Shown here: positions 24,481-53,100 of the stretch, one piece after another | Numbering within the stretch: position 1 is the stretch's first letter | How the letters are laid out: every line of letters begins with the position of its first letter | NCBI GenBank assembly: GCA_964187785.1 | Contig: OZ076418.1 | Coordinates: forward strand, 744,001 to 808,000 | Direction: 5' to 3' | Length of the DNA stretch: 64,000 nucleotides | DNA from: Amphiscolops sp. MND2022 | Taxonomy: Eukaryota | The notes under the pieces: generated by a model | Told to the model about the DNA's origin: nothing | The model's database searches: none | Seen by the model: only the letters and a program-made list of their open reading frames with translations | Translations under genes and position numbers: made by a program

Positions 24481-24499
24481 TCCATGAAAGGTACCCAAA

Positions 24500-25541: not shown

Positions 25542-25544
25542 AGG

Positions 25545-30954: not shown

Positions 30955-31036
30955 CTTGTAAATTAATTATGCGATAAGATGGTCTGCAAATGGTCAAGGG
31001 TAACCTTTTGTCCAGACGATAGTGAATCCACTAATT

Positions 31037-31468: not shown

Positions 31469-31689
31469 ATCGATTTGTGAAGGTTAGGATTCAAAAATGA
31501 CCAACAAACAACAGTCTGTGAAAGATTGGAAAAAAGGTGGAAATAAATCGGGCGTTCCACAAGCCATGAAAAATGTTACTCTCAAAAAGTGAAAAGATAT
31601 CTTACAAAAATGGAAAAGTAAGGAAAGTACTACGAAAGGTTTTCATCTACAAAATGAAATGATAAAAATGACATCACGAGCAAAAAGAA

Positions 31690-31915
31690 AAATTTTCAAT
31701 TGGTCATTTCCTTTTAATTTTGAAAGTAAGCAACTCAAATACAAAATTCTGATTGGTTCGCGAGAAAGTGTTGAATCGGTCGATCGATTTAATGATTTAG
31801 AGTGTCAGCCAATGAAGTTTATTCTCTGAAATCACTAGAAGATATTCCTCTCTAAATACGTGATAGAGAGTAGAAATTCCAAATCGTGACCAATCACAGA
31901 TTTCTGTTATTGGAT
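31690..31915. promoter_or_regulatory. CCAAT-rich candidate bidirectional promoter with palindrome CCAATCACAGA-TT-TCTGTTATTGG (31890-31913)
   Basis: Several CCAAT/ATTGG boxes lie between the divergent transcription units; the palindrome is conserved in the older family. Confidence 0.55.
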
Positions 31916-32005
31916 ACTTGATCGTCTTGATTGATTTCAGCCGACAGCCATTCCATTGTATATCTCCTCCAGACTAGACACCTAAAATTTCACTCTACTA
32001 TTAAG

Positions 32006-32632
32006 ATGAAAGTATTCACCTTTGAAACAATACCTGACAAAGAAAAAATCACTTTTCATTGGGACGAAGCTAATGGAGAGATTGTATTTGTTACAGAGAG
32101 TCGAATTTTTCAGGACGATTGGAGTGTATCGAACAAAATTTGCATTCCTGATGTTCTCTTCTCAATGTCCCACATTTGGATGCACTGTGTGAAGCAAGAA
32201 AGTGATGTAGCCTTATCATCGATAGTTTTACATCGCAAAAATATTCCTCGCCATCAATTTTTGGAGCCTACCCCAAACTTACTTTTACAACCTGTAACGA
32301 ATTGTGAATCAATATCTCCAAGTGTGAGAGAGATTTTCTACGAGCATGACTTATCACGTTGTCCGCTGTCAGCTAATCAATTGGGACTTTTAGAAGACAT
32401 GGAAAGGTTGGAAGGTGCCTGGTCATTGAACGATCAGAGTTCATTCACTCAGTCAACATCCAACGATGTCGCGACTCGCAAAAGGATAATACCCCGAATG
32501 GGTACTTCGGCCATTAGAGGAAAGAGTCACCGACTAGACACGAAACAAGAGAACGTTGATTCGTCGAACCTTTTGATTGGTCCTATCGACAACGAGCACA
32601 CGAGAGTAGGTGTCAGCGAATCAGATAATTGA
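32006..32632 (+). CDS. Polinton accessory protein, unknown function (208 aa)
   Basis: Open frame from ATG 32006; divergent homolog at 23085-23831. Confidence 0.65.
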   Translation: MKVFTFETIPDKEKITFHWDEANGEIVFVTESRIFQDDWSVSNKICIPDVLFSMSHIWMHCVKQESDVALSSIVLHRKNIPRHQFLEPTPNLLLQPVTNCESISPSVREIFYEHDLSRCPLSANQLGLLEDMERLEGAWSLNDQSSFTQSTSNDVATRKRIIPRMGTSAIRGKSHRLDTKQENVDSSNLLIGPIDNEHTRVGVSESDN

Positions 32633-32820
32633 AAAATTTTACTCGTTTATTCAACGTTACGAGTATATTCGATTCATCATTTAACTCAACATTATTTCAC
32701 TTTTTTACTAAAAGCCAAGAAGTCTGTACGTCCTTTTTCATTTCCTCCAGTATAGATAAAATTGATACTCTTTTTTACTAACATCTTTAACGTTGTTTTA
32801 ACGTGGAACATTCAATCAAG

Positions 32821-33559
32821 ATGAAGAGAAGTCTTTCCTCAATTTCATCAAAAGGATCCAACGCTGAGCCTAACGTGGAAAGTGGGACTTTGGGACTTCG
32901 AGCATTGAACAGCTACAAAGAACGAAATGCTGTTGGAGTTTTGGAGCAAGAAAACTGTTGGGATTTTTCGCACGTACCTTTCAGAACTCTGAGAGTATCA
33001 ATTCCCAAATACTCATATGAGAGGGAAACAGTTTCGGATTGGGTTCATTTCAAAATTCTCAAAAAGGATCGAGGAGAGTACAAAGGACATCAACTCGTTA
33101 TTCTTTCTCTTTATGAAACTCGTCAATTATTGTCAAGTTTGGAACGAATCAATAAAGATTCTCACTCACAATTTGAGTGTATCAAAGGTGATACAAACTA
33201 CGGAACAGACATTTCAGACTTCCCACAAAGTCATTCTCCGTCCAATTTCCCTACTTTGGAGGAAGATCGAGAAAAAGGAATTAAATTTTGGGATATTTGC
33301 GAGTCCGAGACGATTTGTGGGAGCATCCCTCAAAGTGTATGACAATACCGACTATTCAAAGACATATATTCAATTGAAACTCTACACTAGAAATGATACT
33401 CATGACCAATTCGTTCGGAAAGGGGCACTCAGTCTGCGGGTTGGTGAACTCGAGGAACTAACCCGACACGATAGTCAACTGATGGAAGCAGTTGTGAGAG
33501 AATCACTGAGAAAGTACAAATTGTGGAAGGAAAACTCTGCATTTTCATTAAAAGTTTGA
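32821..33559 (+). CDS. Polinton protein with candidate PC4-like ssDNA-binding domains, probably one frameshift near 33272-33290
   Basis: Two overlapping frames; the second contains RRFVGASLKVY...YIQLKLY...VRKGALSL...ELEEL, reminiscent of PC4/Sub1. Confidence 0.45.
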
Positions 33560-33692
33560 ATGATGTTCTTTTTATCTTAGTTATGTATGTGCATGTTTTC
33601 CGAAGTATTTATTTCCATCGTTCTCGTGAATTGAAAAATAATAGAGTTTTCATTACAATTCATGTTTCATTAGAAGTGAGTCGGATAGAATA

Positions 33693-34094
33693 ATGATTGA
33701 TATAGGAGAGAATAGAAAACTTATTACCAGGAAAAAAGTTGAAAGAACAATTGAATTCATTGAGTGCAAAACTTTTGGATCCAAGTGTCAGCCTGAATTT
33801 CATTTACAATTTAGTCTACTGGAAGCGAGTCTCTTACCTAAAGAAATTGAAGTTGTCACAAAAGAATCCAAGTCTTTCAAATATTCGAACGGAAGAAGGA
33901 GACTCGAATTGACATTCTGGGGTACAGATAACAAAATTGCAAACTGTAAAATTGAAGTTAAACAGTTTAAAAAGACAAAATTCGTTACAATCAATAGCTT
34001 AGCGCTCTCTACTCAAGAATATTTGCGACTAAAACAATTTTGTACGTCAACAATATCGGTACCTGAAATTGACATTTTGGAGCAGTCTCAGTGA
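33693..34094 (+). CDS. Polinton accessory protein, possibly PC4-like
   Basis: 133-aa ORF; KIEVKQF...SLALSTQEYLRL resembles the PC4 strand-strand-helix end. Confidence 0.5.
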   Translation: MIDIGENRKLITRKKVERTIEFIECKTFGSKCQPEFHLQFSLLEASLLPKEIEVVTKESKSFKYSNGRRRLELTFWGTDNKIANCKIEVKQFKKTKFVTINSLALSTQEYLRLKQFCTSTISVPEIDILEQSQ

Positions 34095-34131
34095 ACATTT
34101 TGGAACAGTCTCATTGAACATTTACCCAACA

Positions 34132-34542
34132 ATGAATTTGAACTCGATTCTGTCAACTGAAAAAGAAATATCCACCAATACTCATTTTCAGAAAAACACT
34201 AAACGCAAAAATTTTTTCTTGGCGTGTTGTCTCTCCATCAGTTCAGAAGTAGATTTATTAGAAATTGATCGACTAGCTCCGTTCGGTGGTTTGATAGGAA
34301 TTGGTGACTCAACTCTCGAGACAGTATTCGGTGGATTGAAGTGTTTTCGAATGCATGCAGTTTTACATGATGCATCTGGTTTCATGAAAACGACATATTC
34401 AAGAGGAGTCGGATATTGTTATGTATTCAAAAGCGATACCATACTACCAAATTCCTGTTTATTGGGACACATTACTGGTTTAGTTTATTGTCTCTATTTG
34501 AAATTCTATCATTCCAAGCTTTTCAGTGATTTCGATGTTTGA
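34132..34542 (+). CDS. Candidate phospholipase A2-like protein
   Basis: Gly-rich loop PFGGLIGIG followed by HAVLHDA (His-Asp dyad) and GVGYCY. Confidence 0.45.
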   Translation: MNLNSILSTEKEISTNTHFQKNTKRKNFFLACCLSISSEVDLLEIDRLAPFGGLIGIGDSTLETVFGGLKCFRMHAVLHDASGFMKTTYSRGVGYCYVFKSDTILPNSCLLGHITGLVYCLYLKFYHSKLFSDFDV

Positions 34543-34623
34543 TTAGCTTCACAGTTTCAAAACCGTGATCGTCCCCTCATTATCCAATTTCAACCACAAA
34601 ATCTAGTTTGCTCAATCACGGAA

Positions 34624-34893
34624 ATGACTGATGGTGTTGATGGTTTGGAAACAATTACACCCCAACAGATTGTATTTGACTCAAACAATCAAGAACGATC
34701 ACCTTGGTTCTTTTTGGGACGCGAATGTTCGAGATCTGCTAGCCTCTTTTTCTTTCAGTGTTTTTTAATTTTCATTTTAGTTTCAACGTCAATCACTTGC
34801 ATTGCATTATCAAAAAGTTGTGAAGAGTCAACTGTTTGGGTTGCAATTTTAACGTGGGCTGTTGGCTATATCTTACCTTCTCCGAGGCCTTAA
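34624..34893 (+). CDS. Small two-helix membrane protein typical of Polintons
   Basis: Hydrophobic segments LFFFQCFLIFILVSTSITCIAL and VWVAILTWAVGYILPSP. Confidence 0.7.
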   Translation: MTDGVDGLETITPQQIVFDSNNQERSPWFFLGRECSRSASLFFFQCFLIFILVSTSITCIALSKSCEESTVWVAILTWAVGYILPSPRP

Positions 34894-34894
34894 C

Positions 34895-35545
34895 ATGAAC
34901 AAAATTAATTCCACGAAAGACAGGCTTTTCATGTCTATAGTAGGCCCTTCTGGGTGTGGAAAGTCCCATTTGATTTTCGACATGTTGAGAAGAACTTTTT
35001 TCCCCGAGTTTGACAAAGTTTTGTATTTTTTCAAACACAGTCAACCTCTATTTGAGCAAATGAGTCGCGAGTTTCCAAAGTTAGAATTCATCGGATCGCT
35101 AGATTTCGATCTAATTGACAATCTACCAGATAATGGAGCCAATTATCTTTTAGTGTTCGATGATTCCTGTCAAGAAATTTACAAATCGCAAAAGTTCATC
35201 GACTTGGCTACTGCAGGAAGACACAAAAAGCTGAGTTGTATTTATATCAAACACAATCTCTTTCACAAATCATCTAACGGTCGGGATATAGACTTGCAAA
35301 ATACACATATTGTTCTTTTCAAATCACCGCGTGACGTACAACAAGTAAAAGTTCTCAGTCGTCAATTAGGAATTGAACGTCAACTAGTAGATTGGTACAT
35401 TGATGCTACTACAAAACCTTTCGGACACTTGATGATTGACCTTAGTCCAAAAACTGATGATCTCATACGTTATGGTACTAATTGTACATCATTTCCTTCA
35501 CAGTTTTACCTACCTAGCAGTAGAGCACGACAGTGGGTTAAATGA
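34895..35545 (+). CDS. FtsK/A32-like genome-packaging ATPase
   Basis: Walker A GPSGCGKS, Walker B LLVFDD and the GRH motif. Confidence 0.93.
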   Translation: MNKINSTKDRLFMSIVGPSGCGKSHLIFDMLRRTFFPEFDKVLYFFKHSQPLFEQMSREFPKLEFIGSLDFDLIDNLPDNGANYLLVFDDSCQEIYKSQKFIDLATAGRHKKLSCIYIKHNLFHKSSNGRDIDLQNTHIVLFKSPRDVQQVKVLSRQLGIERQLVDWYIDATTKPFGHLMIDLSPKTDDLIRYGTNCTSFPSQFYLPSSRARQWVK

Positions 35546-35859
35546 TCAAACCACTGAATTACTTTACTCTGAAACTCTTTTTGACTTTCAACAAAACCCT
35601 CCAAAACATTTTCCTCAAAAAATGTTCCAAAGACTTTCTTCGTTTTCTATGTGAGTGTGTTAAAAATCTACTAGAAGGGAATCTCTGTGATATTCGGCGA
35701 AAGCAAATCAAACGGTTTGAATCTTTAATCATTCGGATAATTTCCCCAAAGACTTCTGTGAGAACAAGACGTGCTTTGCTAGCCAGTGATAAGGGACTCT
35801 CGCTAATCAGATTGATTGGTGGTTGCGTTTTGAAAAAGTTTGCACATAGATTTGATTGA
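35542..35859 (+). CDS. Conserved small basic Polinton protein downstream of the ATPase
   Basis: LRFLCECVKNLLEGN...RRALL pattern; duplicated at 39902-40219. Confidence 0.7.
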   Translation: MIKPLNYFTLKLFLTFNKTLQNIFLKKCSKDFLRFLCECVKNLLEGNLCDIRRKQIKRFESLIIRIISPKTSVRTRRALLASDKGLSLIRLIGGCVLKKFAHRFD

Positions 35860-36376
35860 TGGACAAAAGTAAGTTTGTCTTGATTCCCTTATCTTTGTGG
35901 GAAAATCTATTCAAAAGTTACTTCGAACCCACAACTACAAAAGAAAAATCAGCAGGACAAGTTTATCTCAAATTCGGAGGGTCATTAACCCCGAAGACTG
36001 ATCGTAAGTCGATGGTTTTTGAACCTAAATATAAAGTTAGTAAAGTTGCTCCCCAATCACCTCTGAAATCGTCGCTACCTAATTTCGAAGAAACCTTGGA
36101 GAATAAATACAAGAACAATTCTTCGGCAAAAAAATTCTCAAAAAGCTGACAACGAACGATTCCATCAAGTTTTCAATCAACAAAACTATAATAGTTGACG
36201 ACATTGACACTGAAATTGAAGTGGAGGACTTTATCTCGAACTTGACAAGGAAGAAAGGTGAATTCGATCCACGCTTCACAATAATTTTGAATGTTCTAGA
36301 TCTTGATCCATCTACTGTTCAGAATTCTAAAGCTTTCAATGACGACAATGCAGGATGGGTCTATTACGCTTTCTGA
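35856..36376 (+). pseudogene. Polinton ORF (about 173 aa) with a frameshift in the A7 run at 36128-36134
   Basis: Adding one A continues the frame as KKILKKLTTNDSIKF...AGWVYYAF*; duplicated at 40216-40736 with the same lesion. Confidence 0.65.
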
Positions 36377-37306
36377 AAGATTACTATTGAATAAGTTGTA
36401 CAGAAAAGTTCTTCAGCGTTTGGGTCAATCAAAAGTTTATATAAAAGCAGTGGTCTCACTCGGAAGAAAGTAGAAACATTTCTCGAATCAAAAAGTGCCT
36501 ATACAAAGTTTAAACAGAGACGAGGAAAATTTAATCGACTTTCTGCTCGAGCTAGATTTATCAATGACATTTGGTGCTTGGATTTAGCGCAAATGGATAG
36601 ACTAGCATCTTACAATTCAGGAGTCAAGTATTTAATGGTTGCCGTTGACATCTTTTCACGATTCGTTCGTGTACAACCTCTAAGAACGAAGAGTGCGAAA
36701 AGTACTGAAAATGCATTTGTCAAGATGTGTGGACGTTCCTCAAATGGATTGGATTTCCCCAAAAAACTTTGGATTGATCGAGGTAAAGAATTCCTCGGTG
36801 ACTTTAAAACTTTTTGTGAAGATGTTGGCATTGTCGTTTATCATACAAACAGTGAAACCAAAGCAGCCTACGCGGAAAGAGTTATTCGATCCTTGAAAAA
36901 TGTTATCTATCGTTATCTAGAGGAGAAGAATACTTTCAATTACTTGAAAGAGCTTCCCGCATTCGTTGAAACACTAAATTCACGCGTGTCCTCGGCCACC
37001 AACTTAGCACCTAAGCATGTGATGAACGAACATTTTCTTCAGGTTTTGTATGGTGCCAGAAATTCGTACAACCCTCTCAAAATTGGACAAAGTGAAGCAA
37101 AGTTTTCCGTCTGAGACAGAGTCCGAATCGCAAAAGTTGATAAAGCCTTTCGACGAGGATATAAATCCCAATTCACAGATGAATTGTTCACTATTACTAA
37201 AATTGCTACTCGCTACCCTATTGTTACCTACATAATCAAAAATCAGACTGGAGAAACAATTTTGGGAAAGTTTTACCAATCAGAATTGTCTCGTCAAATC
37301 ACTTGA
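36348..37306 (+). pseudogene. Retrovirus-like DDE integrase (about 319 aa), disrupted by a frameshift near 36408 and an in-frame TGA at 37112-37114
   Basis: DLAQM / WIDRGKEF / AERVIRSLK catalytic motifs. The C-terminal KF.V(G)DRVRI...GY...FT.E.F...GKFY..EL continues past the TGA. Confidence 0.92.
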
Positions 37307-37309
37307 CAG

Positions 37310-38152
37310 ATGGATAACTTTATTGTCGAGTTGGTTTCGAACGCTTCTTCTTCTATTTACCCTGACAATACACTTGCTTCGTTCACCAATTTTCTTCCCG
37401 AACAATTGTACTTAGATGGTGATTGGGAGGTAGCTCTTCTTGAAATCACTTACCCTGCTCTTTATAACAACATTACTGAGGGTAAATTTTGGTACGTACC
37501 ACAGAGAAGTACTTCCAAAAAAAGCAACAACGAAGAAACGAGGGAAGCATCTAATGAATCTTACGAATCTGTGACTATTCTGCCTGGAATGTATTTATCA
37601 TTAGATGAGATTTTTCAGTCGATGAATGATGCACTCAGGTTGCGCAACAGACAAAGTGTCGAACTAAAATGGAAGGTTGATTCAATTACTAGACACTGTG
37701 AAATTGAGTTAGCATCTGACAAGTCACAACTAGTTTTCGCTAGTCAGGACTTATGTTCGATACTGGGTTTTAGTCAGTCAGTATGGTTTAGTAGCAAAGG
37801 TCCTCACAGGAGTGAGTTTCCAATAGATATTCTGCGTTTCCACTCTGTCATGGTATACACTGATATCGTTGAATTTTCAATCATTGGTGATACCAAAGCT
37901 CCAATTCTGAGATGCTTTCCGTTCAATAATAAAATTCAAAGAGATTCTATATCCGTCACAAAGTATTCCAATTATGTTTCGTTCGACAATTTACAATTCA
38001 GAAGACTTTTGAAAAATTCAATACATTCAATCAAAGTTGAACTGAGAAGTCCGACAGGAGAATTAATCCCTTTCGTTGCAGTCGGCATAACACGACTCAC
38101 TTTACTTTTCAGAAAAACGAAAGCTAGTCCCAAAGACTCGATTCCAATCTGA
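37310..38152 (+). CDS. Minor capsid protein (penton-like, single jelly-roll)
   Basis: N-terminal motif LVSNAS..YPDNTLASFTNFLP...L.GDWEVAL.EI.YP. Confidence 0.88.
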   Translation: MDNFIVELVSNASSSIYPDNTLASFTNFLPEQLYLDGDWEVALLEITYPALYNNITEGKFWYVPQRSTSKKSNNEETREASNESYESVTILPGMYLSLDEIFQSMNDALRLRNRQSVELKWKVDSITRHCEIELASDKSQLVFASQDLCSILGFSQSVWFSSKGPHRSEFPIDILRFHSVMVYTDIVEFSIIGDTKAPILRCFPFNNKIQRDSISVTKYSNYVSFDNLQFRRLLKNSIHSIKVELRSPTGELIPFVAVGITRLTLLFRKTKASPKDSIPI

Positions 38153-38154
38153 TC

Positions 38155-38523
38155 ATGAGAAATGTTCATTTACCTCACTTTAGTGGCGTTCCACGTCAAC
38201 GAGGGAGAGGACTCGGAGCACTTGCTGGTACGATTGCTCGTACCGCTTTTCCTATCTTGAAACGCTTTGTTGTACCAGCTTCAAAAAAAATTGGAAGAGA
38301 TGCTATCGATATAGCCTTACCGCAAGTTGAGGATGTCTTCAGCGGAAAATCATCCGTCAAAAAAGCAATCAGGAAAACAGCTTCTTCAACATTAAAAAAA
38401 CAAATTGGAGGAGGTCATCGGAAAAAAATTAGGAGGTCGAAAGGGAAAGCAAAAAGGTTCATTTCTAAACGAAAGAAGAGAAAACGCAGTCGCGAAGATT
38501 TCTTTAAAAAAATTAAAGAGTAA
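38155..38523 (+). CDS. Basic core/cement-like virion protein with QxGxG motifs
   Basis: RQRGRGLG, KQIGGG and an Arg/Lys-rich tail; located between the minor and major capsid genes. Confidence 0.7.
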   Translation: MRNVHLPHFSGVPRQRGRGLGALAGTIARTAFPILKRFVVPASKKIGRDAIDIALPQVEDVFSGKSSVKKAIRKTASSTLKKQIGGGHRKKIRRSKGKAKRFISKRKKRKRSREDFFKKIKE

Positions 38524-39681
38524 TGTCTGTACCCACTCCTGTGAATCACTCCTCATTAGATGTTTTTGATGGAGTTCCAATTTTGGAACCTATTCTTTGG
38601 TCCAACACTCAACAGACTTTCCCTACTAATTCACTGAATGAAGCTAGTATTGATTTCCATCTAGAGACAGATCGTAATGTAATGTTGGACTTACAGGAAA
38701 CTTATTTACTATTGAAAGTTGAAGTGAAAAAGGATGGCGTAGCCTTAGAAAACGCAGATGAAGTCATGTTCAGTAACAATGCGTTACATTCGCTTTTCTC
38801 CAACTGTGAAGTTTACTTCAACAATGAACAAATTTATACTTCTAATGGATTGTATCCTCACAAAGCACAAATTTCAAATGAATTTTCTGGAACTCGAGGT
38901 CTGAAAGATTCTATTGGAATATGTCAAGGGTACCAGTATGAAAATATCCCAAACGACTTTACTTCCGCTCCTTTCACGGGGAAAGTAATGACAGTGAACA
39001 CTGGAGAAAAAAATGTTTTATGGAAAGCTAGCGATCGATGTGTTCACTTGCGACAAATTTCTTCTACCCAACATCAAAGTTAGAATTCGACTCATTCGTT
39101 CACGACCGAATTTTTATCTCATTAGTACCCAAACAAAGAATTTCCATGCTACAATCAAGGAAGCTTCTCTTTTTACTAGAGTAGTTGCAGTGGATGAACC
39201 TTGTATCCGTACTATCCAGGCAACAATCAAGGAGAGACCAGCTCGTTACAACTTTACAGAGGTTCTTAGTAAAACATTCATTATTCCAAACAACCAGAAC
39301 CAGTTTATTCACGAGAACATTTTCAATGCACCAATTAGGCGAATAGCTATCGCAATGAATACAAACACTGCTTTCACTGGAACTTTGGGAACAAACCCTT
39401 TTCACTATAGAAAATTTGATCTTAGAGAAGTGCGAATCGTGAGGGGAAATCAAGTTATTGTCAGGATGGATACAAGAAATATTGTTCAGACTTATGTTAC
39501 CACGATGAAAGCTCTAAAATTTGAGGATGATGGTCCAAACATACCTTTGTCAGAGTATGAGAATCATTTCGTCCAAGTGTTTGATCTGACCTCCACACAA
39601 GAGGCTAATGTCCAAATGTATTATCCTGATGTAGTCGCTGCCAGTCTCAGACTAGAACTTTTCTTCCAGACAGCACTGACT
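38523..39681 (+). pseudogene. Major capsid protein (double jelly-roll), 5' copy: frameshift at A7 (39007-39013) and C-terminus lost at the duplication junction
   Basis: LHSLFSNCEVYFN...YPHKA, GKLAIDVF..DK.L.PN, NPF.Y..F motifs. Confidence 0.9.
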
Positions 39682-40780
39682 AATCACCGCGTGACGTACA
39701 ACAACTAAAAGTTCTCAGTCGTCAATTAGGAATTGAACGTCAACTAGTAGATTGGTACATTGATGCTACTACAAAACCTTTCGGACACTTGATGATTGAC
39801 CTTAGTCCAAAAACTGATGATCTCATACGTTATGGTACTAATTGTACATCATTTCCTTCACAGTTTTACCTACCTAGCAGTAGAGCACGACAGTGGGTTA
39901 AATGATCAAACCACTGAATTACTTTACTCTGAAACTCTTTTTGACTTTCAACAAAACCCTCCAAAACATTTTCCTCAAAAAATGTTCCAAAGACTTTCTT
40001 CGTTTTCTATGTGAGTGTGTTAAAAATCTACTAGAAGGGAATCTCTGTGATATTCGGCGAAAGCAAATCAAACGGTTTGAATCTTTAATCATTCGGATAA
40101 TTTCCCCAAAGACTTCTGTGAGAACAAGACGTGCTTTGCTAGCCAGTGATAAGGGACTCTCGCTAATCAGATTGATTGGTGGTTGCGTTTTGAAAAAGTT
40201 TGCACATAGATTTGATTGATGGACAAAAGTAAGTTTGTCTTGATTCCCTTATCTTTGTGGGAAAATCTATTCAAAAGTTACTTCGAACCCACAACTACAA
40301 AAGAAAAATCAGCAGGACAAGTTTATCTCAAATTCGGAGGGTCATTAACCCCGAAGACTGATCGTAAGTCGATGGTTTTTGAACCTAAATATAAAGTTAG
40401 TAAAGTTGCTCCCCAATCACCTCTGAAATCGTCGCTACCTAATTTCGAAGAAACCTTGGAGAATAAATACAAGAACAATTCTTCGGCAAAAAAATTCTCA
40501 AAAAGCTGACAACGAACGATTCCATCAAGTTTTCAATCAACAAAACTATAATAGTTGACGACATTGACACTGAAATTGAAGTGGAGGACTTTATCTCGAA
40601 CTTGACAAGGAAGAAAGGTGAATTCGATCCACGCTTCACAATAATTTTGAATGTTCTAGATCTTGATCCATCTACTGTTCAGAATTCTAAAGCTTTCAAT
40701 GACGACAATGCAGGATGGGTCTATTACGCTTTCTGAAAGATTACTATTGAATAAGTTGTACAGAAAAGTTCTTCAGCGTT
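39682..40780 (+). repeat. Internal duplication of 35322-36420
   Basis: Constant offset 4360; at least one SNP (ACAAGTAAA versus ACAACTAAA). Confidence 0.95.
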
Positions 40781-40785
40781 AGAAC

Positions 40786-41437
40786 TTATCTCATTAGTAC
40801 CCAAACAAAGAATTTCCATGCTACAATCAAGGAAGCTTCTCTTTTTACTAGAGTAGTTGCAGTGGATGAACCTTGTATCCGTACTATCCAGGCAACAATC
40901 AAGGAGAGACCAGCTCGTTACAACTTTACAGAGGTTCTTAGTAAAACATTCATTATTCCAAACAACCAGAACCAGTTTATTCACGAGAACATTTTCAATG
41001 CACCAATTAGGCGAATAGCTATCGCAATGAATACAAACACTGCTTTCACTGGAACTTTGGGAACAAACCCTTTTCACTATAGAAAATTTGATCTTAGAGA
41101 AGTGCGAATCGTGAGGGGAAATCAAGTTATTGTCAGGATGGATACAAGAAATATTGTTCAGACTTATGTTACCACGATGAAAGCTCTAAAATTTGAGGAT
41201 GATGGTCCAAACATACCTTTGTCAGAGTATGAGAATCATTTCGTCCAAGTGTTTGATCTGACCTCCACACAAGAGGCTAATGTCCAAATGTATTATCCTG
41301 ATGTAGTCGCTGCCAGTCTCAGACTAGAACTTTTCTTCCAGACAGCACTGACTGAAACAATTGAAGTGATTGTCCTCGGTGAACGATTGTCAACAATTTA
41401 TTTAGACAAAAGTGGAACAGTTGTTAAGAATGGATAA
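40786..41437 (+). pseudogene. Major capsid protein, 3' copy (40786-41353 duplicates 39114-39681; carries the only C-terminus)
   Basis: Offset 1672; ends ...LGERLSTIYLDKSGTVVKNG*. Confidence 0.9.
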
Positions 41438-41834
41438 TGAACAACTATTATCTATTGTCTCGAAAATTAAAAACTTGAAGTATAAATATTTGGGATCTTT
41501 TCCCGCAGATATGGTTCCATTTAATATTGACAAAAATAGTTTCTGTATAATTAACAGCGACTCGAGTACTGAACCCGGAACCCATTGGGTGATGATTGCG
41601 GATCGAGACGGAATACTCTACTTTGGTGATTCCTTGGGAAGACCGTTGGACTACTACAGAAAGATACGATTCAATTCGAACCGATCAGTGAAACTCTTGT
41701 GTAATTTTCGGTTGCAAAGACAAGACTTATGTGGACTATACTGTATTTATTTTGCCCATGTACTCTACAAATATGGAAATTTATCGTACGTTTGTGATAG
41801 TTTAATATTACGTTTCTTTGCTGAGTTTTTATAA
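41430..41834 (+). CDS. Adenain-like cysteine protease (134 aa)
   Basis: PGTHW (His), YFGDSLG (Asp) and Q..DLCGLYC (Cys); ATG overlaps the MCP stop. Confidence 0.92.
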   Translation: MDNEQLLSIVSKIKNLKYKYLGSFPADMVPFNIDKNSFCIINSDSSTEPGTHWVMIADRDGILYFGDSLGRPLDYYRKIRFNSNRSVKLLCNFRLQRQDLCGLYCIYFAHVLYKYGNLSYVCDSLILRFFAEFL

Positions 41835-41899
41835 TAAAATTTCACTTAATTTTCTTTCAAGTGACATTTGAGTATTGCGAGTTTTTTGCAAAATAATTC

Positions 41900-43915
41900 C
41901 AAAGATTTCAAAAATTTTCTTCACTATTTCTCGAGTCATGATATTGTTTTTAAATATTTTTTCATGAGGATTCTGAAAAAGTATGGTTTCATAAACTTTT
42001 GAAAAAATCATTATTTTCCTATTTTTTTTTCTACTAAAATCACTAAGAAAATTTCTCTAAACGTATTTTCGTATCTTAGAATTGATTTCTGAGATGTATT
42101 TTTCATGCGGATTCTGAAAATGTATAGTTTTATAGACTCTTGAAAAAACCATTTTTCAATTTTTTTTCATATTTTTTCTCGAATATTTTCAAGAAATTTT
42201 TGTAGAAACGTTTTTTCGAGTTGTATATATGTTTTCTAAGACGTACTTGTTATAAGGATTCTGAAAATGTATGGTTTAATGGACTTTTGAAAAATTTTTT
42301 TTGCTTTTTTCATATTTTTCCTCGAAATTTTTCAAGAAATTTTTGTCGAAACGTTTTTTCGAGTTGTATATATGTTTTCTAAGACGTACTTGTTATAAGG
42401 ATTCTGAAAATGTATGGTTTAATGGACTTTTGAAAAATTTTTTTTTTGATTTTTTTCACATTTTTTCTCGGAATTTTTCAAGAAATTTTTGTCGAAACGT
42501 TTTTTCGAGTTGTATATATGTTTTCTAAGACGTACTTGTTATAAGGATTCTGAAAATGTATGGTTTAATGGACTTTTGAAAAAATTTTTTTTTGTTTTTT
42601 TTTCACATTTTTTCTCGACATTTTTCAAGAAATTTTTGTCGAAACGTTTTTTTGAGTTGTATATATATGTTTTCTAAGACGTACTTATTATAAGGATTCT
42701 GAAAATGTACAGTTTAATGGACTTTTGAAAAAATTTTTTTGATTTTTTCATATTTTTTCTCGAAATTTTTCAAGAAATTTTTGTCGAAACGTTTTTTCGA
42801 GTTGTATATATGTTTTCTAAGACGTACTTGTTATAAGGATTCTGAAAATGTATGGTTTAATGGACTTTTGAAAATTTTTTTTTGATTTTTTTTCACATTT
42901 TTTCTCGAAATTTTTCAAGAAATTTTTGTCGAAACGTTTTTTCGAGTTGTATATATGTTTTCTAAGACGTACTTGTTATAAGGATTCTGAAAATGTATGG
43001 TTTAATCGACTTTTGAAAAAAACTTTTTTTCGATTTTTTTTTCACATTTTTTCTCGAAATTTTTCAAGAAATTTTTGTCGAAACGTTTTTTCGAGTTGTA
43101 AATATGTTTTCTAAGACATACTTGTTATAAGGATTCTGAAAATGTATGGTTTAATGGACTTTTGAAAAAAATTTTTTTTTGTTTTTTTTTCACATTTTTT
43201 CTCGACATTTTTCAAGAAATTTTTGTCGAAATGTTTTTTTGAGTTGTATATATATGTTTTCTAAGACGTACTTATTATAAGGATTCTGAAAATGTATAGT
43301 TTAATGGACTTTTGAAATTTTTTTTCACAATTTTTCTCGAAATTTTTCAAGAAATTTTTGTCGAAACGTTTTTTCGAGTTGTAAATATGTTTTCTAAGAC
43401 GTACTTGTTATAAGGATTCTGAAAATGTATGATTTTATAGACTTTTGAAAAAATCATTTTTTCTTATTCTTTTTCTACTAAAATCACTAAAAATTTTTCT
43501 CTAAACATTTTTTCAACATTTACAATTGATTTCTGAGATGTATTTTTCAGGAGGATTCTGAAAATGTATGATTTTATAGACTTTTGAAAAAATCATTTTT
43601 TCTTAGTCTTTTTCTACTAAAATCACTAAACATTTTTCTCTAAACATTTTTTCAACATTTACAATTGATTTCTGAGATGTATTTTTCAGGAGGATTCTGA
43701 AAATGTATGATTTTATAGACTTTTGAAGAAATCATTTTTTCTTATTCTTTTTCTACTAAAATCACTAAAAATTTTTCTCTAAACATTTTTTCAACATTTA
43801 CAATTGATTTCTGAAATGTTTTTTTTTCATGAGGATTCTGAAAATGTATGGTTTAATGGACTTTTGAAAAAATCATTTTTTCTTATTCTTTTTCTACTAA
43901 AATCACTAAAAATTA
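41900..43915 (+). repeat. AT-rich tandem array, about 14 units of ~133-150 bp, inside the Polinton
   Basis: GGATTCTGAAAA recurs at about 41968, 42109, 42256, 42399, 42545, 42694, 42837, 42982, 43131, 43281, 43414, 43553, 43692 and 43833. Confidence 0.95.
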
Positions 43916-43994
43916 ATAAATTCGAAATAGTAAACCAATGCAATTGACAAAATTGAAAGCAATAACATTTCAACTTCAATCTCTCGCACAGGGT

Positions 43995-44010
43995 AGCCCT
44001 TAAAAGGGCT
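43995..44010 (-). terminator. Histone-type 3' stem-loop after the RING-like gene
   Basis: Minus strand AACCC-AGCCCT-TTTA-AGGGCT-ACCCT, 23 nt after the stop codon. Confidence 0.65.
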
Positions 44011-44033
44011 GGGTTGAAAAGAAAGTTGACTTA

Positions 44034-44300
44034 CTAGTCGCTCGATGACATGATGACATCGTCCTCTGACTCCTGTTGGATGTTCAGAGAGGTAGAGCGA
44101 CAGTGTGGACATTTGTCTATGTACTGAGAGCAGACAGCTCTACAGAAGACAAAGTCACACACTCCGCAACTAACCCACGAGCACCAACATTTCCTCCGAA
44201 GTGTAAGACAGATGGCACACCTCTCCTTAGTGCCTCTGTGTTCATGGATTCCGAACTCCGCTCCGACTTTTTCACGACTAGTTAACTTTCTCTTAGGCAT
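44034..44300 (-). CDS. Cys-rich RING/FYVE-like zinc-finger protein (88 aa)
   Basis: C-x2-C-x6-C-x-C-x4-C-x2-C-x4-C-x3-C-x6-C-x2-C ending CPHCR; N-terminal PKRK; homologs in the flanking array. Confidence 0.75.
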   Translation of the reverse strand: MPKRKLTSREKVGAEFGIHEHRGTKERCAICLTLRRKCWCSWVSCGVCDFVFCRAVCSQYIDKCPHCRSTSLNIQQESEDDVIMSSSD

Positions 44301-44683
44301 GATTGCAGAATAAAATGATATTGTTCAGACTAAAGAGAGAATCTATAACTCTCCTTTGATTGGTTACAATGAACTGAGTGACTCTACATTGGTTAAGTAC
44401 ATTCTTGTGATTTCTGACCAATAATATCACAGCGCAAAAAACTGATATATAATTAACATTAAACAAAGATCAAAAGAAACCAGATCAGACCCTTAAGATT
44501 AAAGAGAATGAAAATCTCTTTAACCTCAAAGAAAATCTCAGGTGAACCTTACGAGGTCTGGGATTCGAAGAAAAAGAAATAACTAACCTGTAGTTGGCGT
44601 TCCACAAAGTTCAAAGGAAACCGGATCAGAACCTTAAGTTTAAAGAGAAAGTCAATCTTTAAACTCAAAGAAAAATCACTGGT

Positions 44684-44699
44684 AGCCCTTAAAAGGGCT
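44684..44699 (-). terminator. Histone-type 3' stem-loop after the PIP-box ORF
   Basis: Minus strand AACCC-AGCCCT-TTTA-AGGGCT-ACCAG, 22 nt after the stop codon. Confidence 0.65.
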
Positions 44700-44721
44700 G
44701 GGTTTGAAAAGACTAAACAAG

Positions 44722-44931
44722 TTACTTGTAAAAGTCTGTAATTTTACTTTGCTTCGGAAGCTTCCCAACGAAGTTCTTCAGCGTGACGACACTATGCTCA
44801 GCCGGGACGATCAACCAGATCGCCCGGTCTCCATTCTCTCCGTTCACTTCTTCGGCTTGCCTCACCGTAAGGTGGGGTAGCCCATTCTCCCTGGCCCGAC
44901 GGAGCAAAATCTCTCGCCTGCTTTCTAACAT
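44722..44931 (-). CDS. Micro-protein (69 aa) with C-terminal PCNA-interacting PIP box QSKITDFY
   Basis: ATG at 44931; matches the Q-x-x-(ILM)-x-x-(FY)-(FY) consensus at the extreme C-terminus; followed by the stem-loop. Confidence 0.6.
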   Translation of the reverse strand: MLESRREILLRRARENGLPHLTVRQAEEVNGENGDRAIWLIVPAEHSVVTLKNFVGKLPKQSKITDFYK

Positions 44932-45174
44932 CCTCACAAAAATTCGGTATTTTAAGTAACTTGTTTGTGACTACAAAAATTGAGGTATGATGGTAAGGTT
45001 TCAAAATTGGAAAAGTTGGTAGAAATTGATCTTGACGGAATATGATTGGATGAAATTGCTAGATCCTATTTTAAAAATCCTGATAAAGATGATTTTTTGC
45101 CTTGACAGCATGTCTGGTTGAGTTAGTAAATTTATTAATGTTGAAAAGGAAACCTTGAAGTGATAATTATTTTT

Positions 45175-45410
45175 TCTGACGGGTAGTCTACTTTACTGAA
45201 CTAGTTAATAGTCCTTGAATAGAAATCCACTAACAGATAATTACTCTTGCTGACGGGTAGTCTACTTTACTGAACTAGTTAATGTTCGTTGAATAGAAAT
45301 CCACTAACACATAATTACTTTCGCCGACGGGTAGTCTACTTTACTGAACTAGTTAATAGTCCTTGAATAGAAATTCACTAACACATAATTACTTTCGCCG
45401 ACGGGTAGTC
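45175..45410 (-). repeat. Subterminal ~74-bp tandem repeats sharing the CTACCCGTC..AAGTAATTAT core
   Basis: Three full units plus the copy inside the TIR. Confidence 0.8.
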
Positions 45411-45655
45411 TGATAAGATTGACAGGTTCTTTTGTTTGAGGAGATAATTAGTTCATATAGTAGTCGGATGACCTTCACAGGTTATTTGACTCAAATAAGA
45501 CAGTTCTCGGGTGAATGAACTCCTAGCTGGCTGATAAAATTGGCAGGTTCTTAATTTGAGGAGATAAATTTCTAAAGGATATTGAAGCGGAACACGAAAA
45601 AAGGTAAATGAACTCCTCACTTTATACCTGCCACATTGGAACATATACTACTACT
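45385..45655 (-). repeat. Right terminal inverted repeat
   Basis: Reverse complement of 25545-25813. Confidence 0.95.
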
Positions 45656-47158
45656 GCTAGGTTTTTGAGGATTTAAAAATTACTGAAAGGGGTCAAAAGC
45701 TGTCCTTCCCTGCTATGCGGGCATGAAATTAACATTGTTCCACACACTTTGGCGCAGCAAGCTTTACCACAAGTGGTGCATTGCAACCAGTCGCACCAGC
45801 ATGCTGAATTCAGAGTAGTACATACCCAACAGTAAGTGTGTTTTTTCTGCATACAGTCATGACGTCAGGGTGAATGGTTAGAATTCGGACTTCCTTCGTC
45901 TCAACGTGGAAGTACGTGAATAGTTCCCTGGTTTCGAATTCTGAGTTAGCATTGTATAAACAAGCATAATTGTTGGAAGCACTGTAAATTAATATTAATT
46001 TCATTTAAAAGCTTCCCATGACTTTGAAATGAGTATAAAACTGGTTTATAGCCTCAATTCGCATCAGGGTAGCCTTTAAAAAGGCTAGGTTTTTGAGGAT
46101 TTAAAAATTACTGGAGGGGGTAAAAAGCTGTCCTCCCCTGCAATGTGGGCATGAAAATAACCTTGCTCCACACACTTTGGCGCAGCAAACTTTACCACAA
46201 GTGGTGATTGCAACTAGTCGCACCAGCATGCTGAATTCAGAGTAGTACATACCGAACAGTAAGTGTGCTTATTCTGCATACAGTCATGACGTGTTCCAAA
46301 TTTGTTCCACGTTTGTTGGAAGCAATATTTTTGCACGTCATAGAAATATTCAGTTTCAATGCAACAAAAGCTCATCTTTTGCCAAGGAGGAGAAACTTTC
46401 TCGACACTTTCTGGCTAAACACTCAACGTCTAGTTTCGTATGCTCTATCTGTATATTACCGTCTCTTACTTTCAACCGTTTGAGTTATCATAAACGTCAA
46501 GAACACGGAAGAGTGGGGAAAATACCAATCGATCAAATTGATTTATCTGGATTTGGAGAGGAGAATCTAGTAAACTGTGAAAGAGATCATTCAATAAAAT
46601 AATTATCGAAGAATATAAAATAATATTAATTTCATTTAAAAGCTTCCCATGACTTTGAAATGAGTATAAAACTGGTTTATAGCCTCAATTCGCATCAGGG
46701 TAGCCTTTAAAAAGGCTAGGTTTGTGAGGATTTAAAAATTATTGAAGGGGGTCAAAAGCTGTCCTTCCCTGCTATGTGGGCATGAAATTAACAATGTTCC
46801 ACACACTTTGGCGCATCAAACTTTACACAAGTGGTGCATTGCAACCAGTCGCACCAGCATGCTGAATTCAGAGTAGTACATACCCAACAGTAAGTGTGTT
46901 TATTCTGCATACAGTCATGACGTCAGGGTGAATGGCTAGAAATCGGACTTCCTTCGTCTCAACGTGGAGGTACCTGAATAGTTCCCTGGTTTCGAATTCT
47001 GAGTTACCATTGTATAAACAAGCATAATTGTTGGAAGCACTATAAATTAATATTAATTTCATTTAAAAGCTTCCCATGACTTTGAAATGAGTTTAAAACT
47101 GGTTTATAGCCTCAATTTGCATCAGGGTAGCCTTTAAAAAGGCTAGGTTTTTGAGGAT

Positions 47159-47350
47159 TTAAAAATTATTGAAGGGGGTAAAAAGCTGTCCTTCCCTGCA
47201 ATGTGGGCCTGAAATTAACATTGCTCCACACACTTTGGCGCAGCAAACTTTACCAAAAGTGGTGCATTGCAACCAGTCGCACCTGCATGCTGAATTCAGA
47301 GTAGTACATACCCAACAGTAGGTGTGCTTATTCTGTATACAGTCATGACG
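47159..47350 (-). pseudogene. Older-family RING/FYVE-like gene fragment (one of six copies, at about 45672, 46101, 46732, 47159, 48928 and 52390)
   Basis: YCWVCTTLNSAC(W/R)CDWLQCTT(C/F)GKVCCAKVCG..LI.CPH.R aligns with RCAICLTLRRKCWCSWVSCGVCDFVFCRAVCSQYIDKCPHCR. Confidence 0.85.
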
Positions 47351-49574
47351 TGTTCCAAGTTTGTTCCAAGTTTGTTGGAAGCAATATTTTTGCACGTCAT
47401 AGAAAGATTCAGTTTCAATGCAACAAAAGCTCCCCATCTTTTGACAAGGAGGAGAAACTTTCTCGACACTTTCTGGCTAAACACTCAACGTCTAGTTTCG
47501 TATGCTCTATCTGTAAATTACCGTCTCTTACTTTCAACCGTTTCAGTTGTCATAAATGTCAAGTACATGGAAGAGTGGGAAAAGTACCAATCGATCAAAT
47601 TGATTTGTCTGAATTTGGAGAGGAGAATCCAGAATTATTGGAGGAACATCGTTCTGGGCAGCCTTTCTGGGTTGATTCCATGAACAATTTTTGTTTCGTG
47701 TTTTTCGATAATTTTTCAGTAGAAAACCGTTTTGACCAAATAAAATATCATTTTTCTCAATTGTAGACCGGTTTTCATGAATTTTGACTGTTTTCCGATA
47801 GCTTTTTATCGGAAAATGGCCATTTTTCTAATTTGAAACTCATTTTTGGTACTTATTTCCAGGAAAGAAAAGGGAGAACTCGTCGTTTTCGCGAATTTGA
47901 GTACATTGAGTTGATGTCTCTGATGTTGGAAGCGCGGGGCCCACCCCCTTTATATACATGGGGGTGTATCCCCGCTGTCGGTGTGATATGAGTGGCCTAT
48001 AGCTGTAACGATCAAGACTCATTCCGAAACGTCACGATAACACACCCTTAGTGCTATATGTTAACATATACTCAATAAAACTTACTTAATCCTTAAAATA
48101 TTGAATGAGATGAAAGCGATCTGGCAGAATTAATCTGATTCTTGAAAAATCCAAGTTTTCGGTTCTTACCTACATGTCCTTGTTCACTTAGAAGTGTTAT
48201 GCTCAGTACTTGTTCCCACTAGACGGTACTGATAGTTTTTCTAAATCGATGAATCTTCACTTACTTAAAAACTGGTTTGATTATATTATACTAAACTTCT
48301 GGCGGAACGAACAACTTTCAATACTAAACTAATTCTAGTTGAGTTAGTTTCCCGTATTTTGCTCCAGGTTGCAAAATTCAGCGAAAACTTGTACTGGATT
48401 AAGTGAGTCATGAAACCTTGGGAAGCCTCCTTTACTGGACTACTGGAAGTAACATATCATCGAACACTTGTGACGGATTGAGTGAACCAAAAACAAATTG
48501 ATTGCAGAGACACTTCTAACTTTCAACTTACAGTATACAGTAGTAAACTTACTGTAGTAATCCGCGAAAGAGAATATTCATGAAAGGTATGAAAAGTGAA
48601 TAAACCTTCGAGTCACAGTGAACATGACAGGTTAGAAATATCGATTCTCTAAACTGTCTTGTAAACCGTGCAGATCATTCATGAGTGATATGAAATGAAA
48701 AGTGAATGAACTTTTGACTCGCAGTGAACATGACAGGTTAGACTTACTGAATCACAACTGTCTAAAAAAACCGTGGAAGAGATCATTCATTAAAATAACT
48801 ATCGAAGAATATAAATTAATATTAATTTCATTTAAAAGCTTCCCATGACTTCGAAATGAGTATAAAACTGGTTTATAGCCTCAATTCGCATCAGGGTAGC
48901 CTTTAAAAAGGCTGGGTTTTTGAGGATTTAAAAATTATTGAAGGGGGTCCAAAAGCTGTCCTTCCCTGCAATGTGGGCATGAAATTAACATTGTTCCACA
49001 CACTTTGGCGCCGCAAACTTTACCACAAGTGGTGCATTGCAACCAATCGCACCAGCCTGCTGAATTGAGAGTAGTGCATACCCAACAGTAAGTGTGCTTA
49101 TTCTGCATACAGTCATGACGTCAGGGTTAATGGTTAGAATTCGGACTTCTTTCGTCTCAACGTGGAAGTACGTGAATAGTTCCCTCGTTTCGAATTCTGA
49201 GTTAGCATTGTATAAACAAGCATAACTGTTGGAAGTTGATGATTTGTGAAGAAGATAGAGATTGAACTGAGAAAATGAAGATTATTGAAGAAATTTTGGA
49301 ACAGTTGTGGAGCAAAGTTTAGAATTACGAAGTTATTTCAAAATTATAGTATCTGAAGGTAATTGTGTGAGAAAACTTGGAGGTTAAAGTTTGGACTTTT
49401 CGAAACTGAGTAACAGAGCAAAATTTGGATGACGTGTGAAAATGAAGATTTGTGAAGAAGTTTAAGGTTGAATTTCGGAGCAGTTGGAGATGGAATTTCG
49501 AAGCAGTGTTGCTGAGGAAAAGTTTCCGAACGTCAGTATTTGTACTATCCATTCTTTGAATAAATGATGAATAA

Positions 49575-50170
49575 ATTACCTCCACCAATCACAGCTCGTT
49601 ATTGTGATTGTGCGCCATCTAGTTCATGCAAACCAACAAACTCATGAAAGGTACCAAATTTGAAAGTTTGAATGAATTAGGAATAAATTACCTCCACCCA
49701 ATCACAGTTCGTTGTTGTCATTGTGCACCATCTAGGTCATGCAAACCAACAAACTCATGAAAGGAGCCAAGTTTGAATAAATTATTATTAAGTTACCTCC
49801 ACCAATCACAGTTCGTTATTGTGATTGTGCGCCATCTAGTTCATGCAAACCAACAAACTCATGAAAAGTACCAAATTTGAAAGTTTGAATGAATTAGGAA
49901 TAAATTACATCCACCCAATCACAGTTCGTTGTTGTCATTGTGCACCATCTAGGTCATGCAAACCAACAAACTCATGAAAGGAGCCAAGTTTGAATAAATT
50001 ATTATTAAGTTACCTCCACCAATCACAGTTCGTTGTTGTGATTGTACGCCATCTAGTTCATGCAAAGTAACAAATTCATGAAAGGCGCCAAATTTGAATT
50101 TTCGAATAAAGTATCTCCACCAATCACAGTTCGTTGTTGTGATAGTGTCCCATCTAGTTCATGCAAAGTA
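49575..50170. repeat. Six CCAAT-palindrome tandem units
   Basis: CCAATCACAG at about 49585, 49698, 49802, 49915, 50019 and 50120. Confidence 0.85.
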
Positions 50171-53100
50171 ACATCCATGAAAGGTACCCAAATTCAAGCT
50201 TTTACAAAATTAGGAATGAATTTGGCATTCCGTGGTAGTCTGGATCTGTTTCCTGCTTTGTTCGTAAAATATAGTAACATTTCGTTCCTTCTCTTAGTCT
50301 CTGATTATCCTATTGACCTCACACAATTTCGAACAATACTCAGTATCAATTCAAATTTTTGTAATTCTCCCAATTGTCAGTATCATATTCTAGTTTACAG
50401 CACACATCTCAGTTCTTCAGATTTTTCACTCCAGGGCATTTTCTCCTATCAGATTGTAGGCTGTCTTTTCACTGTCTTTATTTCATAAAGTTTTATTTCA
50501 TAAACATACTAAAATTGAAAGGATTCATTTTCCGAGAACTTTTGTCAGCAATCGACTTCCATTAATCTCTCCGGTCTCCAGTCCCAACAAGTTTCAATGT
50601 GTCGAGAAAAGACTTCTTCAGAAGAAATTCAAAACTAATCCGAGAAAATAAACATTGATTTCTCCCAAAGCTCTCGAAACTTGCACTATTGCAATTCTCT
50701 CCAAAAGAAATTCGATATTGTTATCCAGCAAACGAGAAGAATTACTTGAAACTATAGATTGTATATCAAAATTTTTATAGCTTCTCAAAATGTCTCATAG
50801 AGAACTGAAACAATGTCCCATGTGTTCCAAGTTTGTTGGAAGCAATAACTTTGTACGTCATAAAAAGATTTAGTTTCAATGCAGCAAAAGCTCCTCATCT
50901 TTTGCCAAAGAGGAGAAACTTTCTCGATACTTTCTGGCTAAACACTCCACGTCTAGTTTCGTATGCTCTATCTGTAAATTAGCGTCTCTTACTTTCAACT
51001 GTTTGAGTTATCATAAACGTCGAGTACATGGAAGAGTGGGAAAAATACCAATAGATCAAATTGATTTATCTTAATTTGGAGATGAGAATCCAGAATTATT
51101 GGAGGAACTTCGTTCTGGGCAACCTTTCTGGGTTGATTCCATGAACAACTTTTGTTTCGTGTTTTTCGAAAATTTTTCAATAGAAAACCGTTTCGACCAA
51201 ATAAAATATCCTTTTTCTCAATTGTAGACCGGTTTTCAAGAATTTTGACTGTTTTCCGATAGCTTTTTATTGGAAAATGGCCATTTTTCTAATTTGAAAC
51301 TCAATTTTGGTACTCGTTTTCAGGAAAGAAAAGGGAGAACCCGTCGTTTTCGCTAATTTGAGTACATTGAGTTGATGTCTATGATGTTGGGAGCGCGGGG
51401 CCCACCCTCTTCATATACATGGGGGTGTATCCCCGCGGTCGGTGTGATATGACTAGCCTATAGCTGTAGCGATCAAGGCTCATTCCGAGACGTCACGATA
51501 ACACACCCTTAGTGCTATATGTTAACATATACTCAATAAAACTTAATCTTTAAAATGATATTGAATGAAATAAAAGCGATCTGACAGATTTAATCTGATT
51601 CTTGACAAATCCAAGTTTTCGGTTCTTTCCTACATGTCCTTGTTCACTCAGAAGTGTTATGCTCAGTACTTGTTCCCACTAGACGTTACTGACAGTTTTT
51701 CTAAATCGATGAATCTTCACTTACTTAAAAACTGGTTTGATTATATTATACTAAACTTCTGGCGGTACGAACAACTTTCAATACTGAACTAATTCTAGTT
51801 GAGTGAGTTTCCCGTATTTTGCTACAGGTTGCAAAATTCAGCGAAAACTTGCACTGGATTAAGTGAGTCATGAAACCTTGGGAAGCCTCCGTTACTGGAC
51901 TACTGAAAGTAACAGGTCAGCGAAAACTTGTGACGGATTGAGTGAACCAAAAACAAATTGATTTTAAGAGCCACTACTAACTTTCAACTAACAGTATACG
52001 GTAGTTAACTTACTGTAGTAATCCGCGAAAGAGAATATTCATGAAAGGTATGAAAAGTGAATAAACCTTCGAGTCACAGTGAACAAGACAGGTTAGAAAT
52101 ATCGATTCTCTAAACTGTCTTGTAAACCGTGCAGATCATTCATGAGTGATATGAAATGAAAAGTGAATGAACTTTTGACTCGCAGTGAACATGACAGGTT
52201 AGACTTACTGATTCACTAAACTGTCTAGTAGACTGTGAAAGAGATCATTCATAAAAATAATTATCGATGAATATAAATTAATATTAATTTCATTTAAAAG
52301 CTTCCCATGACATTGAAATGAGTATAAAACTGGTTTATAGCCTAAATTCGCATCAGGGTAGCCTTTAAAAAGGCTGGGTTTTTGAGGATTCAAAAATTAT
52401 TGAAGGGGGTCCAAAAGCTGTCCTTCCCTGCAATGTGGGCATGAAATTAACATTGTTCGACACACTTTGGCGCAGCAAACTTTACCACAAGTGATGCATT
52501 GCAACCTGTCGCACCAGCATGCTGAATTCAGAGTAGTACATACCCAACAGTAAGTGTGCTTATTCTGCATACAGTCATGACCTCATGGTGAATAGTTAGA
52601 ATTCGGACTTCCTTCGTCTTAACGTGGAAGTACGTGAATAGTTCCCTGGTTTCGAATTCTGAGATTGCATCGTATAAACGAGCATAATTGTTGGAAGTTG
52701 ATTTGTGGAGAAGATAGAGATTGAACTGAGAAAATGAAGATATTGAAGAAATTTTGGAACAGAGTTGTGGAGCAAAGTTTAGAATTACGAAGTTATTTCA
52801 AAATTATAGTATCTGAAGCTAATTGTGTGAGAAAACTCGGAGGTTAAAGATTCGACTTTTCGAAGCTGAGTAACAGAGCATTGGAGGAACTTCGTTCTGG
52901 GCAACCTTTCTGGGTTGATTCCATGAACAACTTTTGTTTCGTGTTTTTTGATAATTTTTTGATAGAAAACTGTTTTGACCAAATAAAATATCATTTATCT
53001 CAATTGTAGACCGGTTTTCATGAATTTTGACTTTTCCGATAGTTTTTTTATTGGAAAATGGCCATTTCTCTAATTTGAAACTCATTTTTGATACTCGTTT

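Follow-up and report, generated by a model that had tools for sequence, protein, structure and literature searches.

Two small accessory open reading frames (ORFs) of a Polinton from Amphiscolops sp. MND2022, one of which recurs in relics of an older Polinton family around it, appear to carry mRNA 3' ends of the histone type: as we read the sequence, their RNAs would probably end after a short stem-loop without a poly(A) tail, be bound by the host SLBP and be tied to S phase. Both families lie in a single stretch of 64,000 nucleotides (assembly GCA_964187785.1, contig OZ076418.1, positions 744,001 to 808,000 of the forward strand), the whole of which we call the window and number from its first letter. 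The reading is built on the sequence of the hairpins, their position and sense orientation, their conservation between the two families, their likeness to histone stem-loops, and a long hairpin predicted downstream of them.

The young Polinton (25545..45655) holds two identical copies of the hairpin AGCCCT-TTTA-AGGGCT-ACCCT, both on the minus strand: one at 43995..44010, 23 nt past the stop of a gene for a Cys-rich, RING-like protein of 88 aa (44034..44300, minus strand), and the other at 44684..44699, 22 nt past the stop of a predicted gene of 69 aa, ORF2 (44722..44931, minus strand). Only these two ORFs of the element carry the short hairpin. A local duplicate of the ORF2 3' cassette (44463..44592, minus strand; 77% identity), with no gene directly upstream, contains a third, decayed version at 44544-44559. 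An earlier reading of this DNA, made from the letters alone (the sequence-only reading), gave the sequence of the young hairpin correctly but overlooked both the identical second copy and the decayed third.

The young element is surrounded by relics of a second Polinton family, scrambled and amplified in tandem, in which the hairpin reads AGCCTT-TTTA-AAGGCT-ACCCT and occurs in six copies on the minus strand, all of them where that reading had put them. Two stand 21 nt past the stop of a RING-like gene (52360..52375, with the RING-like core at 52412-52579, and 48898..48913, with the core at 48950-49117), and three stand 14 nt past it (47129..47144, with the core at 47180-47347, and 46702..46717 and 46071..46086, each behind a broken RING-like copy); the distance of 14 nt claimed earlier for the family is thus right for three of the five gene-attached copies, the other two having a frameshift near the gene end. 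The sixth hairpin (25526..25541) has been split from its RING-like gene (45673..45861, minus strand) by insertion of the young Polinton, so that the claim of six intact copies stands for the hairpins, which are all whole, but not for their attachment to genes. A six-pair stem and four-base loop are found in all eight intact copies, old and young, always in the sense orientation of the gene, and when the RNA is cut after the tail the stem has pair probabilities of 0.74-1.0 in the four intact copies folded. A degenerate 19-mer of the hairpin occurs eight times in the window and in none of 100 shuffles, a count made with a pattern that was derived from the same data.

Comparison of the sequences supports selection on this hairpin element through an island of conservation, its reuse within the young element, and a second two-sided change relative to the histone stem-loop. 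Between the families, 24 of 26 nt around the hairpin are identical, set against 6/18 in the adjacent 5' flank and 54/135 nt, aligned without gaps, in the core of the Cys-rich RING-like gene, whose old and young products share 38-42% identity over 45 residues. The identical 16-mer is used again in the young element behind a second, unrelated ORF (ORF2), and in the gene-less duplicate of that region it has decayed.

The argument first offered for selection was covariation: a base pair exchanged on both arms between old and young copies, with loop and ACC tail unchanged. The exchange is as described, and it is one valid, weak event; selection is backed instead by the evidence just given. Between old and young, a single pair has changed on both sides; this does not suffice to test covariation, nor does it tell an RNA stem from a palindromic DNA site, because both DNA strands of the hairpin fold equally well. 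We also rejected the six intact old hairpins as proof of selection. All old copies are broken; the five that are attached to genes are 90.3-95.2% identical (58 of 333 columns variable), 16 invariant columns among the old copies would arise with a probability of about 0.047, and equal invariance is seen in 10.4% of all 16-column windows. The six copies count as one sequence, because they are broken duplicates with 90-95% identity and the long hairpin next to them decays as under neutrality. Nor does the proposed direction of change, from C-G to T-A, find support: the histone reference described below has T-A like the old family. Over 13 aligned rows, pair 1 is A-U in eight, G-C in four and broken in one; pair 5 is U-A in ten and C-G in three; and pair 2 is G-C in 12 and G-U in one. 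These rows represent few related groups, and the result of 0/500 shuffles is therefore no probability. Two two-sided events can be counted among intact hairpins, plus a third in the decayed duplicate. We take the hairpin to be a real feature and probably a functional one.

The hairpins resemble metazoan histone 3' ends (RF00032) in having a six-pair stem, a four-base U-rich loop, G-C at pair 2, U-A at pair 6, an ACC tail, and a place close behind an intronless ORF. An Rfam search of positions 23000-56000 (E<=10) returned nine matches, eight of which were to Histone3, one per hairpin and all in gene sense (19.4 bits behind the young RING-like gene, 19.8 bits behind ORF2). G-C at stem position 2 and U at loop position 3, given as diagnostic of histone stem-loops in the accessible part of bioRxiv 10.64898/2026.10.14.759114, are present in all eight intact copies, and the G at stem position 2 is the one that, according to the available text of PMC10388802, makes the sole base-specific SLBP contact.

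As a reference we have a 3-kb animal histone unit with the gene order H4-H2A-H2B-H3 (L056, at G001:C645), which lies in the bacterial bin G001 together with a Polinton contig (L002) whose product is 51% identical to the minor-capsid-like ORF of the young element; the presence of both in this bin is most likely contamination, and their co-binning is a hint of shared lineage. The four stem-loops of L056, GGCCTT-TTTA-AAGGCC with an AAACC-type 5' flank and ACC tail, match the old Polinton hairpin at 14 of 16 positions, the difference being a two-sided change at pair 1 (G-C in L056, A-U in the Polinton). The motif TTGA, a candidate for the histone downstream element that pairs with U7 snRNA, is also common to both. 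In L056 it lies at +9/+10 in all four histone genes; the five Polinton cassettes checked have it at +14 to +16, and TTGA(A)G-type motifs occur in that range at 2.7% of element positions.

Each short hairpin directly precedes a predicted long hairpin of 55-64 nt, whose fold begins at the ACC tail and takes in the TTGA motif. Calculated over the 66 nt after the stem-loop, fold z-scores (on a rougher score from 12 shuffles, about 1.8% of 2062 background windows lie under -3) are -4.5 for the long imperfect hairpin of the young RING-like cassette (43934..43994, minus strand), -3.9 for that behind ORF2 (44610..44683, minus strand, including a segment able to pair with the stem-loop), -4.3 in the gene-less duplicate (where the window scored began 2 nt early), and -3.2 for the best-folding old copy with its pairing segment (48831..48897, minus strand). 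The other old copies score -2.0, -1.9, -0.7, -0.5 and +0.1, a decay expected under neutrality. The histone genes of L056 fold weakly in this downstream region (z +0.4 to -2.5), so we do not count the long hairpin as a host histone feature. Hammerhead and C/D-box readings of it were dropped, the motifs, judged by eye, not being shared.

If the ends are of the histone type, the ORF would be transcribed and host SLBP would bind the six-pair hairpin with its UUUA loop and ACC tail; cleavage a few bases past the stem would then leave a message without a poly(A) tail, made and destroyed, as histone-type messages are, in step with S phase. Since the candidate U7 site falls inside the long hairpin in the predicted fold, this hairpin would probably tune or replace the normal U7-guided cut. 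The RING-like and PIP-box-like proteins made from such messages may act on host replication. An extension of this scheme, in which a two-part 3' cassette, kept across two diverged families, would both time ubiquitin-ligase-like and PCNA-binding-like proteins to S phase and free a viral small-RNA precursor by the same cut, seems to us unlikely.

Several observations weigh against histone-type ends. The ORFs concerned are RING-like and PIP-box-like, without histone coding sequence, and neither has an outside homologue or a Pfam match. Histone3 scores of 17.9-20.5 bits do not reach the gathering score of 34, a value attained by one of the four true histone stem-loops of L056 (29.8-34.2 bits). The distance from stop to stem, 14-23 nt, falls at the lower limit of the metazoan range or under it (median 30 nt, typically 23-31 nt, in the accessible part of bioRxiv 10.64898/2026.10.14.759114), the three L056 genes measured having 26-43 nt. 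Pair 1 is A-U instead of the usual G-C, and the two 5' adenines that the available text of PMC10388802 includes in the minimal site for wild-type SLBP affinity are replaced by CC or CT, as they are by CC in the L056 histones. TTGA lies 5-7 nt further out than in L056, inside the long hairpin, and the L056 animal may not be this host. In uncut RNA the stem-loop costs 1.3-4.4 kcal/mol relative to the lowest-energy fold in the old copies and ORF2; in the young RING-like gene, as in the four L056 histones, this penalty is 0. Lastly, 45 related loci (187 kb in total, five of them at least 9 kb, with further checks on 11 and on 2 loci) yielded no such hairpin behind a gene, but none of them holds a homologue of the RING-like gene or ORF2; seven loose matches there are about the shuffle level of 2-6, and four of them lie inside integrase coding sequence. 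Searches of viral contigs gave no match to the hairpin patterns, and a canonical-like pattern found six stretches, two of which passed the pairing filter (one within an ORF, one 66 nt behind an unrelated ORF).

What competes with the stem-loop, in two of the three cassette types, is a longer, pri-miRNA-like fold, and the unit could accordingly be mainly a small-RNA precursor: the RNase III Drosha would cut a fold of about 31 pairs after the stem-loop and free a pre-miRNA-sized hairpin, and the mRNA would then refold into a histone-type end, a sequence of events compatible with SLBP binding. A canonical pri-miRNA has a stem of about 33 pairs with single-stranded flanks, and the Drosha ruler measures 11 pairs. 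In all three old copies folded and in ORF2, folding at minimum energy yields the extended structure of about 31 pairs, beginning at the same loop base (z -5.0 in the copy at 48831..48897). The loop and 3' arm of the stem-loop pair with the segment past the long hairpin at 12 of 13 positions in the six old copies (background 0.1-0.3%) and at 11 of 13 in the ORF2 cassette (background 0.9%), while the four L056 histones reach 6-9 of 13; and what the gene-less duplicate has retained is the long hairpin, not the stem-loop. In the young RING-like cassette and the duplicate, by contrast, the extra pairing is absent (8/13, background 49-60%). The long hairpins cannot be confidently aligned between the families, with six two-sided changes against six broken pairs; a consensus fold of young and old sequences from an ungapped alignment holds five additional two-sided changes but six broken pairs, and these were not counted. 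The Rfam search over 23000-56000 gave no miRNA family match. A small-RNA precursor as the main purpose of the unit is improbable in our estimate. It has a viral precedent: in herpesvirus saimiri, pre-miRNAs directly behind snRNAs are released by the 3'-end cut of the upstream RNA, as the accessible part of PMC4526738 describes. Common to both cases are a viral 3'-end signal drawn from a host non-poly(A) pathway and a pre-miRNA-sized hairpin directly downstream. In the herpesvirus, however, Integrator cuts an upstream snRNA at a 3' box; the Polinton unit has a protein-coding ORF upstream, its stem-loop is of the histone type, and a small RNA from it is hypothetical.

A second alternative places the function in DNA, or denies it: the 16-mer may be a near-palindrome that a dimeric protein binds in DNA, or the now inert remnant of a single capture of a histone 3' end. 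A two-sided change suits a palindromic DNA site equally well, the folding energy being the same for either strand; an old copy is the exact place where the young element went in; and with all old copies broken, nothing there shows present function. On the other hand, the hairpin is always in gene sense, 14-23 nt past a stop, with asymmetric flanks that match those of histone genes, and an inert relic would not stay at 24/26 identity beside a protein core at about 40% identity. We consider a DNA site or relic of this kind doubtful. Less likely still, the hairpins might be element-specific termination or polyadenylation signals whose likeness to histone ends is incidental: giant viruses and virophages follow a hairpin rule for transcript ends, long hairpins stand after all three gene ends, and AATAAA occurs near just one of the 15 ORF ends of the young element (an absence that is uninformative), but a signal of shape alone would not need the loop sequence, strand and ACC tail that have been kept, nor would one expect it behind only two of the element's ORFs.

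Should the Polinton ORFs indeed carry histone-type ends, they would provide a viral client for the SLBP stem-loop pathway, so far described as confined to histone mRNAs: the only mRNAs on which SLBP was found in human cells were those of histones, as far as the available text of PMC4604434 goes, and the accessible part of PMC13525598 names no non-histone client. A literature search, with most subscription papers outside it, found no paper joining 'polinton' with 'histone stem-loop' or 'SLBP', and no title or abstract in which a virus or transposon uses the histone stem-loop signal. A DNA element that depends on host replication could in this way time its accessory proteins to S phase, and the natural variants, with A-U at pair 1 and a long hairpin downstream, would probe the tolerance of SLBP and U7. 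At about 100 nt the cassette is small enough for reporter use.

The 88-aa RING-like protein has no Pfam match, a RING profile included; by Atlas features it leans to RING-type clusters at 0.89, which we treat as a lead only, and its AlphaFold model (pLDDT 43) is unusable. No homologue was found by word search (lengths 48-154), among 1.84 billion representatives, or in viral contigs, the 45 related loci or bin G001. ORF2 belongs to no family and has low Atlas recognition, and its status as a gene is for these reasons a prediction. It ends in QSKITDFY, which fits the PIP-box pattern; the pattern matches three of the 137 window ORFs, in ORF2 alone at the C-terminus. This p21-like motif (44725-44751, minus strand) is possibly a PCNA-binding peptide; PIP boxes are described in the accessible part of PMC3019552. 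CCAAT-type boxes number three before the RING-like ORF (at -122, -92 and -63) and two before ORF2, with 0-3 before five other ORFs and a background of 0.72 per 200 nt, and are weak evidence.

That the older relics represent a sister Polinton family, as the sequence-only reading proposed, is borne out by capsid, protease and polB N-terminal relics with 32-60% protein identity to the young element. Decayed capsid and protease genes lie at 21456..22875 (plus strand; segments of 46-60% identity) and a polB N-terminal relic at 50790..51140 (plus strand; 32-37%), with further polB N-terminal relics at 25094-25426, 46297-46563 and 47359-47679. The search for the older family yielded these and the RING-like gene, and no element ends or integrase. 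At the nucleotide level the young element matches the rest of the window only in capsid/protease DNA and in the stem-loop island. Its point of insertion is exactly the 5' arm of an old-family stem-loop: the target-site duplication overlaps the first three stem bases of the hairpin at 25526 and leaves it whole, and from a single site chance cannot be told from targeting. The old family also has tandem repeats of 100-113 nt containing ATTGG (reverse CCAAT) at 24072-24530 and 49555-50222, with the divergent polB start on one side and the RING-like region on the other, and other strongly folding windows at 53836-53901 and 47929-47994 (z about -5 to -6 on the rough score).

Polintons, or Mavericks, are recognized by a protein-primed polB, an integrase, an ATPase, capsid proteins, a protease, terminal inverted repeats and a 6-bp target-site duplication. 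The young element has these defining parts: terminal inverted repeats starting AGTAGTAG, flanked by the duplication GCTAGG (25539-25544 and 45656-45661), together with polB, an A32-type packaging ATPase, integrase, capsid-like ORFs and a protease. Pfam matches are PF03175, PF04665 and PF00665, with PF00770 matching the protease weakly, below the Pfam cut-off. What sets the element apart from known Polintons is the RING-like and PIP-box-like accessory ORFs with their histone-type 3' hairpins. Its minor-capsid-like ORF has full-length matches of 94-100% identity in nine proteins, which makes the family a recent, multi-copy one. In the present copy, polB (26613-30954, minus strand) and the major capsid-like gene (38523-39708, plus strand) are each broken into two ORFs, and an AT-rich tandem array with units of 133-150 nt (41880-43970) lies between the protease and the RING-like gene.

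Loci related to the Polinton contain a tRNA gene (L003:8865-8936, L004:6496-6567, L005:7102-7173 and L001:3682-3753), which in L003 sits between the protease and a convergent polB. Within the window, duplications at 99.9-100% identity (1-1659 and 6960-8618; 35322-36420 and 39682-40780; 39114-39681 and 40786-41353) are either very recent or assembly artefacts. Outside the Polintons, a single ORF of 508 aa (6179-7705, plus strand) encodes a tropomodulin, from which the host was judged to be an animal, with 32-36% identity to named animal proteins, plus one match at 70%.

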